Shown here one piece after another: positions 4,229 through 53,080 of a stretch of DNA of 64,000 nt. The notes below the pieces were generated by a model. It searched no databases. It was not told the DNA's origin and saw only the letters and a program-made list of their open reading frames with translations. The translations under genes and the position numbers were made by a program. How positions within the stretch are numbered: the stretch's first letter is position 1; every line of letters starts with the position of its first letter. Origin of the DNA: Christensenellaceae bacterium (GTDB lineage Bacteria; Bacillota; Clostridia; Christensenellales; Borkfalkiaceae); assembly GCA_045647765.1 (NCBI GenBank), contig JAZRMR010000005.1, positions 1,522 through 65,521 of the forward strand, in the 5' to 3' direction.

Positions 4229-4984
4229 ATGAGATTTGATGAAATAAGAATTGATAGCATTAATACAATAATTCGATACAAACCCGACACGCTTTCTTTT
4301 CGGGCGGAAAACAGAAAGGACCATATTATAGGAATAAATATAAGCGGTTCAGCAATGCACGACCTTGGGTGTAAAAAACTTAATATTTATCCCGACTATA
4401 TCTATTTTTTCAATCAAAAAGACGATTACGACGCGATAACTACCGAAGTGGGATATTGTTATTCTATTCATTTCACCACAAGTGAACCAATAGAAACGGA
4501 AAGTTTTTGCAAGAAAGTTGGAAACACCGAAGAAATAATAAAAAAAATAAAAAAGGTAGAAGACTGCTGGCTTCGCCGTGGCGAAGGTCAGCTTGCAATG
4601 CTATCTAATTTTTATGCGCTATGCGATGTTATTTTCAGCTCGTATAAAGCACCGTATGCCCCAAGCGATACTAGAGTAGTTGCCGCTAAAGAATATATGG
4701 ATTTGCACTTTAAGGAAAAATCTTGTCTTGCCGAATCGGTCGCGAAAGCTCGTCTATCTAGGCGCAGATTTAACGACGTGTTCAAACTTCGCTACGGAAT
4801 CACACCCAACAGATACATCATTTCAAAGAAACTTGAGTACGCTAAACAACTTCTTGACGTAGGATATCTTCCGATAGCGGAAGTTGCGGATATGGCAGGC
4901 TTTAACGACGTGTACTATTTTAGTAAGCAGTTTAAGTTGGAAATGGGAATAACCCCAGGAAACTATAAAAAAGACGGTAAGTAA
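4229..4984 (+). CDS. AraC-family transcriptional regulator
   Basis: C-terminal double HTH region (...RRRFNDVFKLRYGITPNRYIISKKLEYAKQLL...IAEVADMAGFNDVYYFSKQFKLEMGITPGNYKK). GAGGTG RBS before ATG at 4229. Divergent from the GRE operon. Confidence 0.85.
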   Translation: MRFDEIRIDSINTIIRYKPDTLSFRAENRKDHIIGINISGSAMHDLGCKKLNIYPDYIYFFNQKDDYDAITTEVGYCYSIHFTTSEPIETESFCKKVGNTEEIIKKIKKVEDCWLRRGEGQLAMLSNFYALCDVIFSSYKAPYAPSDTRVVAAKEYMDLHFKEKSCLAESVAKARLSRRRFNDVFKLRYGITPNRYIISKKLEYAKQLLDVGYLPIAEVADMAGFNDVYYFSKQFKLEMGITPGNYKKDGK

Positions 4985-5002
4985 CACTATAAAAGTTTTA
5001 AC

Positions 5003-5036
5003 AAAAAAAGGATAGCCTCTTCGACTATCCTTTTTT
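5003..5036. terminator. Bidirectional rho-independent terminator
   Basis: A7-GGATAG-cctcttcga-CTATCC-T6. Confidence 0.65.
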
Positions 5037-5040
5037 GTTG

Positions 5041-5190
5041 GCACACCGTAAGGGACGCTCCTCCGCTTTCGCTACGGAGTCCTCGCCCTTCTCTGTTTGC
5101 CCGTCATTTGACGGACGAACCGTAGGGGTTCTCGCCCTTACTACAAGCAAAAAAGGACCCCCATAAAGCGCGTTTCCCTTAGGGATTTTT
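5041..5190 (-). ncRNA. GC-rich structured intergenic element (candidate small RNA or miniature repeat element); strand uncertain
   Basis: Visibly GC-rich relative to its AT-rich flanks. The ends are complementary: CCGTAAGGGACGC at 5046-5058 and GCGCGTTTCCCTTAGGG at 5168-5184. Internal hairpins are CCGTCA-TT-TGACGG (5101-5114) and CTCCGC-TTTC-GC-TA-CGGAG, whose loop is GAAA on the minus strand. A TATAAT (minus strand, 5198-5203) lies to the right and the 5003-5036 terminator to the left. No credible ORF. Confidence 0.25.
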
Positions 5191-5341
5191 AAGACATTAT
5201 AAAAGAGTAGCAAAATTTTGCTACTCTTTGCTTTTTTGCTTTGCAAAAACACACGACTTTGTTTGCAAAGTATAGTGTGCTACACTTTTGAAAATATTTT
5301 TCCACAAAACGAAACAACTCGATAAATTGGAATTTGTTTTC

Positions 5342-5370
5342 TTGACATTTAAATTTGATTGTGATATTAT
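5342..5370 (+). promoter_or_regulatory. Candidate sigma-A promoter of the pnuC-like gene
   Basis: TTGACA (5342-5347), 17-nt spacer, TATTAT (5365-5370). Confidence 0.55.
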
Positions 5371-5402
5371 TAAGAAAAATAACTGCCACCGGGTAGTACA
5401 AT

Positions 5403-5466
5403 GCATTTGCATTCGTTTACACATCGTTAGGTCTTAGAAGATGTGTATGCGGATGCTTATTTTTTT
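5403..5466 (+). terminator. Leader terminator/attenuator hairpin immediately upstream of the pnuC RBS
   Basis: Outer stem GCATTTGCAT (5403-5412) pairs with ATGCGGATGC (5447-5456), 10 bp with 2 G-U pairs. Inner stem is ACACATC (5419-5425) with GATGTGT (5440-5446). It is followed by TTATTTTTTT, then GGAG (5467-5470) and ATG at 5476. Confidence 0.45.
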
Positions 5467-5475
5467 GGAGACTTT

Positions 5476-6162
5476 ATGAAAAGAGTATGCAATTATTTTT
5501 CAAGGACAGAGTTTACCTTATGGTCGGTATCCGTTATCTTTATCGTTTTGTCATTCTGCATTTTTGACCGTGAAAGCTACATGACATTGATAGCATCCTT
5601 GATTGGTGTTACCTCACTAATTTTCAATGCAAAGGGCAATCCCATAGGGCAGGCTCTTATGATTGCTTTCAGCTTGATTTACGGCATCATATCCTACGCC
5701 TTCTCTTATTACGGTGAAATGATTACATACCTCGGAATGACGATGCCGATGGCGCTCTTTGCTCTTATTTCTTGGTTGAAGAACCCATACAAAGGTAACA
5801 AGGCAGAGGTCAAGGTAAATAATATCGGTAAAGCAGAACAACTCCTTATGTGGCTACTCACGCTCATCGTTACAGTAGTGTTTTATTTCATTCTTGATTA
5901 CTTCAATACAACGAATATTGTACCAAGCACTATTTCTATAACCACGAGCTTTCTCGCTGTATATCTGACTTTTCGCAGATGTCCGACCTTCGCCTTGGCT
6001 TATGCCGCAAACGATATTGTCTTGATTGTTTTATGGGTGTTGGCGAGTCTGTCGGATATTCGCTATATATCCGTCGTTGTCTGCTTTGTGGCTTTTCTGT
6101 TCAACGATATTTATGGTTATATCAGTTGGCAACGAATGAAAAGAAGGCAGTCCAATAAATAA
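5476..6162 (+). CDS. pnuC: PnuC-family (nicotinamide riboside-type) transporter
   Basis: Multi-TM protein with PnuC-like sequence (...NAKGNPIGQALMIAFSLIYGIISY...ISWLKNPYKG...AANDIVLIVLW...FLFNDIYGYISW). RBS GGAG before ATG at 5476. Confidence 0.8.
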   Translation: MKRVCNYFSRTEFTLWSVSVIFIVLSFCIFDRESYMTLIASLIGVTSLIFNAKGNPIGQALMIAFSLIYGIISYAFSYYGEMITYLGMTMPMALFALISWLKNPYKGNKAEVKVNNIGKAEQLLMWLLTLIVTVVFYFILDYFNTTNIVPSTISITTSFLAVYLTFRRCPTFALAYAANDIVLIVLWVLASLSDIRYISVVVCFVAFLFNDIYGYISWQRMKRRQSNK

Positions 6163-17223: not shown

Positions 17224-17242
17224 ACGATAGGGGGAAAAGAGT

Positions 17243-18130
17243 GTGGTAAATCTTGAACTTTACAGGGTTTTTTATACCGTTGCTAAATGCGGGAGTTTAA
17301 CCAAAGCGGCAGAAGAACTTTTTATTTCCCAACCGGCAGTATCGCAAGCGATAAAGCAACTTGAAAGCCAACTTGGAGGAAAACTCTTCAATCGAACGCA
17401 TAAGGGCATGGAACTTTCAGAAACGGGCGGAAAGCAAATTTTTCCGACTGTGGAAAAAGCGTTAAAACTCTTTGACGACGCAGAGAGTAAATATGCGGAA
17501 CTTAAAGATACCGCAACGGGCATAGTTAGAATTTGCGCTTCTGATACTGTAAGCACGCATTTTTTATTGCCTTTCGTTAAAGCGTATCATGAAAAATATC
17601 CTAACGTAAACTTAATACTTCAAAACGGCACGTCAAGTGAAACCATAGAACTGTTAAAAAGCAATAAAGGGGATATAGGTTTTGTAAACCTACCTATTGA
17701 TGACAGCGACATAAACCTTTCCAACACGGTAATGCAACTTCACGACACATTTGTTGCAAGTGAAAAGTATAGTGAACTCTTTGATGGAGTGATTGATTTA
17801 AAACGCCTCCAAGACTATCCTCTTTTAATGCTTGAATTATCAACGGCAACAAGGCAGGCTATTGTTAGTTTTGCGCATTCGCAAGGGGTGCATTTACACC
17901 CGGAAATAGAACTTGCAAGTTTAGAACTTATGACAGAACTTGCTAAAAACGGCATAGGTATTGCGTGTATTCCGAGAGAGTTTGTTAAACACGAATTGCA
18001 GTCGGGAACGATAAAAGAAATTATAACAAATCCCGCTCTTCCGACAAGGGCGGTAGGTTTGGCTCTCCCAAAAGACCAAAATATGACCTTTGCGGTTAGA
18101 GAATTTATAAAACTATTGAACGAAAAATAG
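17243..18130 (+). CDS. LysR-family transcriptional regulator
   Basis: N-terminal wHTH (LYRVFYTVAKCGSLTKAAEELFISQPAVSQAIKQLE) and a substrate-binding domain. GTG start. Confidence 0.85.
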   Translation: MVNLELYRVFYTVAKCGSLTKAAEELFISQPAVSQAIKQLESQLGGKLFNRTHKGMELSETGGKQIFPTVEKALKLFDDAESKYAELKDTATGIVRICASDTVSTHFLLPFVKAYHEKYPNVNLILQNGTSSETIELLKSNKGDIGFVNLPIDDSDINLSNTVMQLHDTFVASEKYSELFDGVIDLKRLQDYPLLMLELSTATRQAIVSFAHSQGVHLHPEIELASLELMTELAKNGIGIACIPREFVKHELQSGTIKEIITNPALPTRAVGLALPKDQNMTFAVREFIKLLNEK

Positions 18131-42575: not shown

Positions 42576-42725
42576 GCCAATAAAATTGATAAATATCGAC
42601 AAAATATGATAAATTTTAACAATTTATATTAATATGTGGAAAAATGTGTGAAAATTTTTCAAAAAAGTTTTAAAAAGGCGTGAAAATTGCTTTACAAATA
42701 TTGTCGAATGTAGTAATATATCATT

Positions 42726-42824
42726 GTCGAAAGGAACAAACCAGACGGCAAAAACAAAGCTCATCATTTTCCCCCTTATCATATATTATTCAGGAAGCAG
42801 TAAACGGTGTTTATTGCTTTTTGA
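42726..42824 (+). ncRNA. Candidate small RNA unit 0 (unique body, shared terminator module)
   Basis: Promoter TTTACA (42691-42696), 17-nt spacer, TAATAT (42714-42719). The body contains UUUUCCCCCUUA. It ends at hairpin AGCAGTAAAC-ggt-GTTTATTGCT plus T-run (42796-42824). No credible ORF. Confidence 0.35.
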
Positions 42825-42854
42825 ATTTTAAATGTACAAACAGTTATATACTTC

Positions 42855-42949
42855 CTTCTCCTCCGCAGTAGCTACGGAGCACTAGTTCGTCAAGGAAGGA
42901 AGAGTCAAAGTCGTGCAGGAAGCAGTAAACGGTGTTTATTGCTTTTTGA
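42855..42949 (+). ncRNA. Candidate small RNA unit 1 (about 95 nt)
   Basis: Own promoter-like TTGAAT (42821-42826), 18-nt spacer, TATATA (42845-42850). The body is CTTCCTTCTCCTCCGC-AGTA-GCTACGGAG...GAAGGAAG. Terminator hairpin plus T-run at 42921-42949. Confidence 0.4.
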
Positions 42950-42978
42950 ATTTTAAATATAAAAACAGTTATATACTT

Positions 42979-43073
42979 CCTTCTCCTCCGCAGTAGCTAC
43001 GGAGCACTAGTTCGTCAAGGAGGAAGGGTCAAAGTCGTGCAGGAAGCAGTAAACGGTGTTTATTGCTTTTTGA
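42979..43073 (+). ncRNA. Candidate small RNA unit 2 (near-identical copy of unit 1)
   Basis: Same promoter-like boxes (TTGAAT 42946-42951), same body, and terminator at 43045-43073. Confidence 0.4.
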
Positions 43074-43174
43074 ATTTTAAACGGATAATTCTTAAAAAAG
43101 TATTAATTTGGTTAAAATAAAAAATTTTTTAAAAAGCATTTACAAATTAGACTAGTTATGTTAAAATCTTAAAA

Positions 43175-43630
43175 ATGCAAATACTAGGGACTAAAGAGAT
43201 GAACAAAGGTAATATTGCAGAAGAAAATTTTAAGAGCGGAATGAATTGTGCACAGGCAGTAACTCTTGCGTTTAAAGAGGAAATGGGGCTTTCCGAAGAC
43301 ACGCTTAAAAAACTAACAATAGGTTTTGGTGGCGGACTTGCCCGTCAACGTCAGGTGTGTGGCGCTGTGCTTGGAATGAGTTTGGTGCTGAGTTATTTAA
43401 CATCAGACGGAAATGATAAGACAAAAATCTATTCTTTAATCAAGGATGCTTGTAAAGAGTTTGAAGAAGAAACTGGCTCTATAATTTGTGCTAAACTGCT
43501 TGACGAAAATACGTTAAAAGACAAATCTTCTATGCCAGAAAAAAGAACGGAAGAATATTATAAAAAAAGACCGTGCGCAAAAATTTGTAAACTTGCCGGC
43601 GAGATTGCCCAAAAGTATTTGAATTTATAA
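43175..43630 (+). CDS. C_GCAxxG_C_C-family protein (putative redox-active); start may be ATG 43199
   Basis: Motifs GMNCAQAV, GFGGGLARQRQVCGAVLG, CAKLL and PCAKICKL match that family as I recall it. Confidence 0.75.
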   Translation: MQILGTKEMNKGNIAEENFKSGMNCAQAVTLAFKEEMGLSEDTLKKLTIGFGGGLARQRQVCGAVLGMSLVLSYLTSDGNDKTKIYSLIKDACKEFEEETGSIICAKLLDENTLKDKSSMPEKRTEEYYKKRPCAKICKLAGEIAQKYLNL

Positions 43631-50884: not shown

Positions 50885-51022
50885 GAAATGATTAAATAAG
50901 GAAAAAACTTACAAATATTTTTAAAAACCCCCTTGAAAAATGTTCGGTTATGGTTTATAATAATTGCAATCGTTAATGAGGGAAAATATATACCATTAAA
51001 AATTATAAGGGGGACTACATAT

Positions 51023-53080
51023 ATGGGTATATTAACAAAAAACATAAGGAACGTTGCTATTATAGGGCATAGCGGAGAGGGAAAAACTTCTTTGGCAGAA
51101 GCAATACTTTTTAATGGCAAAACAATAGACAGGCTGGGTAAAACGACGGATAAAAACACAGTTATGGATTTTGATGAACAAGAACTTGCAAGAGGCATTT
51201 CTATTTCACTTGCTTGCGCACACACTTTTTGGCAAGACGTTAAGATAAATCTCGTCGACGTGCCTGGCTTTTATGATTTTGAAGGCGAATTTGAGGAGGC
51301 TATGCGCGCAGTCGGCTCAGCGGTTTTGGTTGCCGACGCTTCTGGCAACGTCTCTGTGGGTGCTGAAAAGGCAATAGATTATTGCTTGCGCCGTCATATT
51401 CCGCTCATGATTTTCGTTAACGGCGTGGACAAAGAAAATTCAAACTACGTCGCAACGGTTGAAGCGTTCGTTAATAAATACGGAAAGAAAATTTCACCAA
51501 CACATCTTCCCATAATTAGAGACGGAAAGATGAAAGGATACGTTTCAGTTATATCGGGCAAAGCATTTGATTTTACTCCCGGTGGAAGAACGCCTATCGA
51601 CGTTCCTGAAAATCTTAAAGATGAATTACAGACTTTGAAAGAATCGCTTACAGAATCGGCTGCTGAAACCAGCGAAGTGCTTCTCGATAAATATCTTGAA
51701 GACGGTACGTTAACTAACGACGAAATTGTTGCAGGTGTTAAGAGTGGTCTTTGTTCGGGCGAAACCATTCCTATTATGGGTGGTTCTGCTTTACAAAACA
51801 TGGGCGTTATCAACTTAATGTATGAAATAGTTGATTTATTGCCGTCGCCTTATGAAAGACGACCCGTTCTCGCAACTGATGAAAGTGGTGAAGTTCTTTC
51901 TATCGTTAGCGATGCCGACAAGCCTTTCTCTGGACAAGTGTTTAAAACTGTTGCAGACCCGTTCGTTGGTAAACTCAATATGATTAGAGTTTTCACTGGT
52001 ACTCTTAAAACGGGTATGACGGTATATAACTCTACTACTGGCGAAAAAGAACGTATTAATACCATATACGTTATGAAAGGTAAAAAGCAAGAACCGGTTG
52101 AACAGCTAGTTGCGGGCGATATCGGTGCTGTAAATAAACTCGTTAACACAAATACGAGTAACACTTTGTGTGATGAGAAGTTTAAGATTAAGTATTACGA
52201 TATAGTTTTCCCTGTTCCCGTATTGACTATGAAAATTTCTGCGGCAAAGAGCGGTGAAGAGGATAAGGTTTTCCAAGGACTTAATCGTTTAGCAGAAGAA
52301 GATTTGACATTTAAAGTTGAAAAGGATAAAGAAACGGGCGAAACGGTAATTAGAGGACAAGGCGAAACCCACTTAGACGTACTTTGCAAAAAACTTAAAG
52401 CAAAGTTCGGTTGTGAAGCCGTATTATCAGAACCTAAGGTAGCATTTAAGGAAAAAATCACAGGCGTTGCAGAAGCAGAGGGTAAACACAAAAAGCAAAC
52501 GGGTGGCGCAGGTCAGTTCGGCGTGGTTAACATTAGGTTTGAATCGGGTGCAGCTGACGGGCAGTTTGAATTTGTAGACGCAGTAGTTGGTGGTGCAGTT
52601 CCCAAACAGTTCATTCCAGCAGTTGAAAAAGGGCTTAGAGAAGCCATCAACAAGGGTGTTCTCGCCGGGTATCCTATGGTAGATTTAAAATGCACGTTGT
52701 TTGACGGTAAATATCACCCCGTTGACAGCAAGGAAGTTGCATTCGTATCGGCAGCAAAACTCGCTTATGATGATGCAATACGTCGTGCAAAACCCGTTAT
52801 ATTAGAGCCTGTTTACTCTTATAAAATTACAGTTCCTGATAACTATACCGGAGATGTTTTGGGCGATATGAATAAACGCCGTGGCAGAATACTCGGCATG
52901 GAAACGGTTGGAGGATTACAAGAAATTTCAGCAGAAGCACCGCTTGTTGAAATGCTTAAATATGCAACCGACCTAAGAAGTATGACGCAAGGTAGAGGAA
53001 AGTTTAGCGCAGAATTCTTGCGTTATGAAGACGTTCCATTCTCAGCGCAAGAAAAAATTATAGCAGAAGCAAACAAATAA
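51023..53080 (+). CDS. Elongation factor G-like translational GTPase (EF-G paralogue)
   Basis: G1 GHSGEGKTSL, DVPG and NGVDK motifs, and EF-G domain IV/V-like C-terminal regions. AAGGGGGA RBS before ATG at 51023. The track ORF is over-extended upstream. Confidence 0.88.
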   Translation: MGILTKNIRNVAIIGHSGEGKTSLAEAILFNGKTIDRLGKTTDKNTVMDFDEQELARGISISLACAHTFWQDVKINLVDVPGFYDFEGEFEEAMRAVGSAVLVADASGNVSVGAEKAIDYCLRRHIPLMIFVNGVDKENSNYVATVEAFVNKYGKKISPTHLPIIRDGKMKGYVSVISGKAFDFTPGGRTPIDVPENLKDELQTLKESLTESAAETSEVLLDKYLEDGTLTNDEIVAGVKSGLCSGETIPIMGGSALQNMGVINLMYEIVDLLPSPYERRPVLATDESGEVLSIVSDADKPFSGQVFKTVADPFVGKLNMIRVFTGTLKTGMTVYNSTTGEKERINTIYVMKGKKQEPVEQLVAGDIGAVNKLVNTNTSNTLCDEKFKIKYYDIVFPVPVLTMKISAAKSGEEDKVFQGLNRLAEEDLTFKVEKDKETGETVIRGQGETHLDVLCKKLKAKFGCEAVLSEPKVAFKEKITGVAEAEGKHKKQTGGAGQFGVVNIRFESGAADGQFEFVDAVVGGAVPKQFIPAVEKGLREAINKGVLAGYPMVDLKCTLFDGKYHPVDSKEVAFVSAAKLAYDDAIRRAKPVILEPVYSYKITVPDNYTGDVLGDMNKRRGRILGMETVGGLQEISAEAPLVEMLKYATDLRSMTQGRGKFSAEFLRYEDVPFSAQEKIIAEANK

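Follow-up and report, generated by a model that had tools for sequence, protein, structure and literature searches.

Small RNAs (sRNAs) that bind Shine-Dalgarno sequences through C-rich or UCCC motifs are well established, with LhrC, RsaE, RNAIII, SprD and FsrA as examples (PMC4132741, PMC2790875, PMC9410917). The present work concerns a 64-kb stretch of DNA from a Christensenellaceae bacterium (contig JAZRMR010000005.1)—hereafter the window, meaning the whole stretch analysed—in which the gap upstream of a gene for a C_GCAxxG_C_C protein is a predicted small-RNA island of two families, consisting of one gene of a family designated here as A and two tandem copies of a second one, designated as B. 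Comparison with related genomes documents, at the level of sequence, the conservation of both units, their gene anatomy, structure and covariation, as well as their independence from the flanking genes. An earlier note on this DNA had described the gap as three promoter-to-terminator units and proposed either sibling sRNAs aimed at ribosome-binding sites or stacked attenuators. Its description proved to be accurate and its interpretation was partly supported: the units are real, conserved, non-coding and terminator-ended, with G-poor, C/U-rich segments, but the first of them is a different and far more conserved RNA, to which the repeated unit is accessory.

Layout of the array and collection of related loci

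The 27-nt terminator module AGCAGTAAACGGTGTTTATTGCTTTTT is found exactly three times in the 64 kb, at positions 42796, 42921 and 43045 as previously reported, none being expected by chance. Every copy runs into the TTGAAT that had been pointed out (GAAT follows in each case), and a TATATA lies 18 nt beyond the first two terminators (42845-42850 and 42970-42975). The repeats of 125 and 124 nt differ in pairwise alignment by 3 substitutions and one 1-nt indel, Tandem Repeats Finder (TRF) giving a period of 125, 2.3 copies and 97% matches over 42791-43081; their body, CTTCCTTCTCCTCCGCAGTAGCTACGGAG, is present twice, at 42851 and 42976. The units contain no conserved open reading frame (ORF), as had been stated, since both a 63-aa ORF on the plus strand and a 52-aa ORF on the minus strand fail in relatives. 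The minus-strand ORF (42624-42782) is reduced to only 12 codons in the relative L010, its perfect AAGGGGG Shine-Dalgarno sequence being due to the fact that it is the antisense of A, and the plus-strand frames crossing A and B do not survive the length differences seen in the 5' hairpin and in the loops of the terminators.

The fetched relative loci are denoted by L numbers. The first relatives were reached through homologues of the adjacent C_GCAxxG_C_C protein, on contigs with a like array upstream; exact-protein look-ups with the window's own flanking genes gave no match. A DNA pattern taken from the terminator module alone, CAGGAAGCAG-N13-23-TGCTTTTTGAAT, was scanned against one genome per species and yielded 96 stretches from human gut, rumen and other animal guts, nearly all of them belonging to metagenome-assembled genomes (MAGs) assigned to Christensenellaceae, Christensenella sp., Clostridia or Clostridiales. 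Nearly all these matches proved to be homologues of A, the window's first unit, and not of the repeated unit.

Unit A, a single-copy gene with an invariant block

Unit A (42724..42826; all features are on the plus strand unless stated otherwise) is a predicted sRNA of ~100 nt, matched over 42722-42829 by a hidden Markov model (HMM) with an E-value of 2.5e-29, and the HMM search found it as a single copy per locus in 99 fetched loci. Its 5' stem-loop leads into an A-rich linker, beyond which come an unpaired, G-poor block and the terminator. The unit contains the 42-nt block CUCAUCAUUUUCCCCCUUAUCAUAUAUUAUUCAGGAAGCAGU (42760..42801), which shows zero substitutions in an alignment of 71 distinct sequences, the search pattern having fixed only the last 10 of these 42 nt. 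In the same set, the 5' hairpin, the tip of the terminator and the neighbouring protein (44-72% identity) have diverged while the 42 nt have stayed fixed. No G occurs in the first 30 nt of the block, which are left unpaired in the minimum free energy fold up to the base of the terminator stem (~42788); UUUUCCCCCUUAUCAU sits in this unpaired part, and the segment 5'-CAUCAU-UUU-CCCCCUU-3' is complementary to an AAGGGGG Shine-Dalgarno sequence followed by a short spacer and AUGAUG.

The block passes into terminator 1 (42788..42826), an extended hairpin of 18 bp, the base of which takes in the U-tract and the GAAU of TTGAAT, pairing with AUUC. All 18 pairs are intact in every one of the 71 aligned sequences, and the four distal pairs exhibit compensatory changes in 2, 10, 12 and 29 of them, respectively. 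It should be noted that the invariant nucleotides of A include G.U pairs at the base of this stem. The 5' stem-loop (42724..42751) differs in sequence between species but is kept in structure, folding of 86 sequences having given a mean z of -3.1, with 85% below -2.

The first unit's own promoter, TTTACA-17 nt-TAATAT, is located at 42691..42719 as had been claimed and has 9/12 matches in the promoter scan, which is also the cut-off of the scan. The ungapped consensus of the promoter region, taken over 84 loci and anchored on TTTACA, reads CTTTACAAA-N-GTATATTAT, both CTTTACAAA and the -10 region being conserved. Further upstream, the phased A/T tracts of the same consensus (GTGAAAAATTTTCAAAAAA..TTTAAAAA..AAAACGC; 42640..42690) resemble an UP element and may act as one. 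The direct repeat ATTGTCGAA, noticed previously at 42700 and 42723, was read directly, its first copy (42700-42708) falling within the promoter spacer and its second (42723-42731) around the predicted transcription start site (TSS); UUUUCCCCCUUA was likewise read in the body of the unit. The clade consensus of the repeat is TGTCGAAAG, with both copies kept in most of the 87 distinct sequences in which the anatomy of A was compared, and the repeat may serve as an operator. Fur-box, Rex-box and cre-like readings of the region, judged by eye, were not retained. In several loci, a palindrome TGTTAA-N3-TTAACA is seen ~100 nt upstream of the TSS, the window copy (tgataaattttaaca, 42606-42620) being degenerate.

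Judging from this comparison, A is a real gene under strong selection. It unites a conserved promoter, a covarying terminator, the lack of a conserved ORF and varied contexts, as required of a stand-alone non-coding gene, with a conserved, unpaired, G-poor and C-rich motif.

Unit B, the repeated accessory unit

The two copies of unit B in the window, at 42850..42947 and 42975..43071, score 107.4 (E 1e-20) and 108.9 bits, respectively, with R1, a covariance model built from 31 copies. A search with such a model, as the earlier note had suggested, returned 43 copies of B in 36 sources at 64-112 bits. Unit B is present in ~40% of the loci, 0-3 or more copies being found downstream of A and on the strand of A in 44 of 44 cases, with the first copy beginning 11-50 nt past the end of the A match. 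It occurs without A only on contigs that end inside the array. The tandem multicopy layout recurs in independent assemblies: L078 and L075 have triplets, L106 has no fewer than three copies, and L047 and L052 have pairs. The locus L075 is labelled as Bifidobacteriaceae and the locus L014 as Anaerovoracaceae; both have typical A and B arrays and are probably mis-binned contigs.

The unit has an anti-Shine-Dalgarno-like 5' tail, (G/A)CUUCCUUCUCC, of which positions 2-10, CUUCCUUCU, are invariant in 31 sequences, the first base being G in most of them and A in the window and L005; its CUCCUCC resembles the general anti-Shine-Dalgarno sequence. The hairpin P1 (42858..42879), formed by CUCC (42858-42861) with GGAG (42876-42879) and an inner GC/GC pair, shows 100% pairing among 41 distinct sequences, with covariation at two of the four pairs (CUCC/GGAG, CUCA/UGAG, CUCG/CGAG, CUGC/GCAG). 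The inner G-C/C-G pair covaries once, and an insertion in L104 lengthens that inner helix. A stem CTCCG/CGGAG had been proposed for this region: a covarying hairpin does exist, but the supported CUCC/GGAG register lies 3 nt upstream, the proposed one breaking in the covarying variants. An alternative hairpin, ACGGA/UCCGU, is broken wherever P1 covaries. The internal pairing of CUUCCUUC with GAAGGAAG, likewise proposed, is strong in the window (-13.4 kcal/mol, better than 96-99% of shuffles), but overall 61% is paired and compensatory changes are absent; in relatives, the purine-rich segment varies and is in many cases not complementary, good energies being limited to the window and a few others, and the pairing was rejected as a general one. 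On the basis of its distribution and of P1, B is a real conserved family of predicted RNAs.

Terminator 2 (42916..42948; 15 pairs in the terminator scan) and terminator 3 (43040..43072) are exact repeats of the terminator module. The B model also matches A units, both in the window (42770-42822) and in ~55 loci, at ~30-38 bits, because of the 3' module shared by the two families (CAGGAAGCAG, hairpin, UUUUUGAAUUUU). This module is identical or near-identical between the inspected A and B copies of one genome and differs between genomes, which indicates concerted evolution or recent duplication.

Concerning the origin of B transcripts, independent promoters had been assigned to the repeats. The TTGAAT/TATATA pairs reach, however, 8/12 matches, i.e. 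they are below the cut-off, and have no comparative support; the scan lists the promoters of A and of the C_GCAxxG_C_C gene and no TTGAAT/TATATA pair. The motif TTGAAT follows every terminator in all genomes, the last one of each array included, its distance to B varies widely in relatives, and in eight of these B begins just 11-22 nt past the end of the A match, leaving no room for a promoter. The spacer that holds the TATATA box, TTTAAATGTACAAACAGTTATATA (42827..42850), is not listed as a promoter either. It is colinear, through TTTAAATGTACAAACAGTTATATAC, with a part of a third repeat family, C, of relatives, comprising the 5' flank and the 5' strand of the closing helix; TATATAC is there a portion of this long helix, for which covariation between species is observed. 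A transcript starting with CUUCCUUC, as had been envisaged, is also at variance with the spacing, since a TSS 6-8 nt past TATATA would fall inside CUUCCUUC. Unit B lacks a convincing promoter of its own, a requirement for stand-alone sRNA genes. Since TTGAAT is the base of a terminator stem, the spacing is variable, the spacer is derived from C and the scan lists no promoter, B is probably made mainly by read-through of the terminator of A; a weak B promoter in the window genome is conceivable.

The family C is absent from the window; its ~135-nt units form imperfect, rod-like palindromes, of which 49 copies were counted in 33 loci, often in tandem (e.g. L070 1748-2010 in A-oriented, reverse-complement coordinates; also L094, L081, L010, L079, L037 and others). 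Its nested helices covary, the closing helix measuring roughly 17 bp, and no Rfam match was obtained for it. Its copies are located after A or B and also between ThiT-like and HD-domain genes, ~20-35 nt from the ThiT start codon, so that the reverse complement of C is in the 5' untranslated region of that gene (L016, L010). The family could be an element similar to repetitive extragenic palindromic (REP) sequences, enterobacterial repetitive intergenic consensus (ERIC) sequences or miniature inverted-repeat transposable elements (MITEs), or a leader RNA of either strand. Genes of the ThiT type are usually under the control of thiamine pyrophosphate (TPP) riboswitches in Firmicutes; no TPP riboswitch was found at the Rfam gathering thresholds in the scanned ThiT-like loci L001 (Thia_YuaJ at 4474-5595) and L016. 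In the window and in its closest relative, the B units are chimeras, the B body being joined at CTTC to the 5' flank of C (window 42827-42850 and 42952-42975; L005 46-68; L103 86-108), and a further B/C chimera is seen in L086 (2623-2722).

Near-identity of the repeats within a genome could also mean that the array has no dedicated function, being instead a set of terminator duplicates, some mobile or repetitive DNA, or a product of misassembly. The arrays do disrupt MAG assembly—L026 and L056, two short contigs from a single MAG, end or start inside the array—and the spacer preceding each B copy of the window comes from another repeat family. Such an explanation is, nevertheless, highly improbable in view of the conservation of A and B over ~100 species-level genomes with covariation, the single-copy and syntenic state of A, the tandem B copies in several independent assemblies, and the lack of matches in IMG/VR viral contigs, phage records and plasmids (for A, an exact search of viral contigs and a BLAST search of phage and plasmid records were both negative). 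A MITE- or REP-type element was rejected for A and B on the same grounds, B moreover being found only beside A; the C repeat, unlike A and B, does look like such an element. The repeats of type III toxin-antitoxin systems (ToxI-like) are ~36 nt long, tandem and devoid of internal terminators and precede a ToxN/AbiE-type toxin gene; this identity was rejected for units of ~125 nt, each with a terminator, followed by a C_GCAxxG_C_C gene. A CRISPR-like reading was rejected as well.

Genomic context and a possible leader function

In 51 of 94 loci, a counterpart of the C_GCAxxG_C_C gene of the window (43199..43630; Pfam PF09719, E 1.6e-30) lies downstream of A and is co-oriented with it, with protein identities of 44-72%. 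It is often followed by a gene for a small membrane protein and, in several loci, by a thiamine pyrophosphokinase (TPK) and a convergent ThiT-like transporter further on. The genes upstream of A vary between loci, rpsF-ssb-rpsR being located there in L001 and, judged by ORF sizes, in a number of others. In about a dozen or more loci, a convergent gene comes directly after A, which remains intact. The neighbours named previously for the window—C_GCAxxG_C_C, a PALP enzyme (cysK-like), Rrf2, a class-V aminotransferase (NifS-like) and NifU_N—are all in place; cysK, rrf2, nifS and nifU are, however, not conserved in relatives, so that the redox, cysteine and Fe-S setting offered as context is not upheld.

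The persistence of the C_GCAxxG_C_C gene after A despite the varying upstream genes would suit a cis-acting leader, in which A and B are stacked attenuators or a riboswitch-like element of a C_GCAxxG_C_C-membrane protein-(TPK) operon. In L042, the Shine-Dalgarno sequence of the gene starts ~15 nt past the A terminator, and no promoter was seen between that terminator and the gene in this locus or in L084 and L087, so that read-through may matter there. The eight loci in which B has no room for its own promoter also imply that, if B is expressed, the A terminator is read through at some rate. In addition, among C_GCAxxG homologues sampled by protein, all three loci with at least 58% identity and enough upstream DNA carry A or B. 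Set against this are the good promoters between array and gene in the window (TTTACA-17 nt-TAAAAT with TG, 43139..43167, outside the RNAs; 10/12 in the scan) and in most loci inspected, e.g. L001, L036, L070 and L080, such promoters being absent only in a few loci such as L042. Moreover, about a dozen or more species keep A unchanged with a convergent (ThiT-like) or an unrelated gene following it. In the protein-chosen sample, A or B was seen only at identities of at least 58% and never beside homologues of 51% or less, which suggests that the RNAs belong to a lineage and not to the gene family. From these arrangements it appears that A is independent of its flanking genes, and the leader is regarded as quite unlikely.

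A more specific form of the leader would be a regulated terminator, the invariant nucleotides at or before its base—the G.U pairs included—being the binding site of a ligand or protein. This form also seems improbable, as the pre-terminator transcript offers only a weak 5-bp UUUCC/GGAAG helix as an alternative to the 5' arm of the terminator and no riboswitch of Rfam matches the region of the array, even at E up to 10. The 5' tail of B was considered as an antiterminator and rejected, since it is invariant where its partner CAGGAAGCAG became CAGUCCGCAG. The stacked attenuators proposed in the earlier note are therefore weakened by the gene's own promoter, by the occurrence of A without the operon, by the distant homologues without the element and by the want of a stable antiterminator.

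Putative mode of action and target search

From the above results we infer the expression of A and B, their 5' and 3' ends, the read-through between them, their mode of action and their targets as follows. Unit A would be transcribed from its own, strong-looking promoter as a stand-alone sRNA of ~100 nt, stabilised by the 5'-terminal stem-loop and the long terminator hairpin. Its G-free, C/U-rich stretch would act in trans by pairing with certain mRNAs at their translation-initiation regions, blocking or modulating ribosome binding, like the UCCC/C-rich sRNAs of other Firmicutes. Since Shine-Dalgarno sequences of the GGGGG type are a minority class, seen in 18 of 518 initiation regions (3.5%) of the fetched loci, A would be selective. 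Unit B would have been duplicated in tandem along with the 3' terminator module of A, would arise mainly by read-through of the A terminator, possibly with subsequent processing, and would be either an accessory riboregulator or a partner for A. The proposition that both units are UCCC-type sRNAs, G-poor and C/U-rich, which target ribosome-binding sites in trans stands, in our opinion, about evenly poised between right and wrong.

Several observations weigh against it. Duplex scans performed in silico over ~0.8 Mb of DNA revealed no conserved mRNA target, and the initiation regions of the adjacent C_GCAxxG and membrane-protein genes were not clearly enriched for complementarity to A (C_GCAxxG regions versus A: means of -10.4 vs -9.6 kcal/mol, p = 0.04). 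The best match to the A block in the window is found at the start (17243) of a gene for a LysR-type regulator (17225-17245, GATAGGGGGAAAAGAGTG; -24.5 kcal/mol), but it is lost in the 88%-identical orthologue from L073, and the other strong matches behave like ordinary Shine-Dalgarno variation. The linkage of A with a same-strand C_GCAxxG gene in 51/94 loci and the lack of an intervening promoter in L042, L084 and L087 fit a leader role, and B is without a consistent promoter in relatives. Finally, invariance over 42 nt far exceeds what a seed would need, so another constraint is probably at work. Among the candidates not retained, the start of a gene for an EF-G-like GTPase (51000-51025, TATAAGGGGGAC) is, with the LysR start, among the best window matches to the A block, and the match recurs in L052, which gives only two data points for a conserved target, and a 233-aa protein family displays ordinary Shine-Dalgarno variation.

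The invariant 42 nt and the G.U pairs at the terminator base, being unexplained by the proposed pairing, leave room for a protein-, ribosome- or ligand-binding function. Unit A might be a protein- or ribosome-binding RNA—a sponge, decoy or scaffold—with the 42 nt forming a long contact with a conserved protein, rRNA or tRNA, a possibility that we consider doubtful. It would account for a block much longer than a seed, including positions that would be free to covary if the hairpin alone mattered, and it agrees with the fact that no conserved mRNA target turned up; the target search spanned, however, only the above ~0.8 Mb, and the fetched sequences include no rRNA. The part assigned to B in this case, i.e. 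a partner or antagonist of A through GCUUCCU/AGGAAGC pairing, is likewise put forward with much reserve: the invariant GCUUCCU of B complements the invariant AGGAAGC of A in every genome with both (6 bp instead of 7 in the window), but this complementarity may just reflect the shared terminator module. The purine-rich region of B was rejected as a mimic target of the C-run of A, because it is variable and the pairing beats shuffles in a few genomes only. Taken together, it seems rather unlikely that the block is held either by long contact with a universal partner (ribosome/rRNA, tRNA, RNA-binding protein) or by A being a ligand-responsive, terminator-embedded switch. Were A such a switch, its regulated read-through would yield B (C in relatives) and, in some species, the C_GCAxxG/thiamine-salvage operon, and A, B and C would constitute a modular RNA system of an undescribed kind.

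Significance

The Christensenellaceae-like Clostridia are abundant in gut and rumen, and nearly all their genomes matched here are metagenome-assembled; our literature search found no paper on small RNAs of these bacteria. Unit A offers a concrete RNA gene, predicted to be highly expressed by its appearance and common to about a hundred species-level genomes, and may thereby be an entry point to post-transcriptional regulation in the clade. Its invariant 42-nt tag is directly searchable in metatranscriptomes and useful as a lineage marker, and the degree of its conservation demands an explanation beyond that of a short seed. The A-B layout may serve as a natural case in which to study the growth of sRNA arrays through duplication of a shared terminator module.

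Comparison with known systems

The motif had not been recognised as any named RNA family, and both Rfam and the searched literature agree with this. At the gathering thresholds, the Rfam scan of the window gave no LhrC, RsaE or other sRNA family, its sole match being an M-box (magnesium) riboswitch elsewhere in the window (RF00380, 21162-21317, minus strand, 91.2 bits). The segment 42400-43300 gave only spurious hairpin matches at E up to 10, and 18 related loci gave nothing for A, B or C.

Several described systems share individual features with the island. The csRNAs of streptococci occur in several copies, contain a stretch able to pair with the Shine-Dalgarno sequence as well as with AUG, and have direct repeats in their promoters that bind a response regulator; the double occurrence of TGTCGAAAG in the promoter of A is reminiscent of the latter. 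In the Pseudomonas PrrF1-PrrF2/PrrH system, read-through of the first terminator gives a longer RNA, as in the model proposed for A and B from their spacing alone. With neither of these systems is there homology. The HMP-PP/thiS motif is a riboswitch aptamer embedded in a terminator, with conserved nucleotides at the base of the terminator and a variable tip. The conserved nucleotides of A at or just before the base of its terminator, with TPK and ThiT-like genes nearby, are similar to it; the differences consist in the lack of an Rfam match, the persistence of A without a co-oriented downstream gene and the intervening promoters.

The closest similarities are to the C-rich sRNAs of Firmicutes. 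Several copies of LhrC lie in tandem, and these copies are near-identical siblings, whereas the array described here is heterogeneous, with one ultra-conserved A and a repeated B, the B copies having no convincing promoters of their own. LhrC also has three redundant UCCC sites in place of the single C5 run within the 30-nt unpaired block of A, and it exhibits neither sequence nor structure homology to the present units, with no Rfam match at E up to 10. The likeness resides in the organization and the mode of binding, LhrC1-5 of Listeria monocytogenes being a multicopy family of G-poor, terminator-ended sRNAs whose unpaired CU-rich/UCCC motifs bind the targets at their G-rich Shine-Dalgarno region (PMC4132741). 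RsaE/RoxS, RsaA-K, FsrA and IsrR of Bacillales are similar to A in being stand-alone RNAs with a 5' hairpin, an unpaired C-rich motif conserved over long distances that pairs with Shine-Dalgarno sequences, and a terminator (PMC2790875, PMC8216469, PMC9410917). They represent, however, another sequence family from another taxon, as reflected by the lack of an RsaE match in Rfam; no Rex, ResD or Fur site was recognised in the promoter of A, and the invariant stretch of A is much longer. Being present in neither Rfam nor the searched literature, A and B are best filed as C-rich sRNAs, putatively targeting ribosome-binding sites, with unusual conservation.

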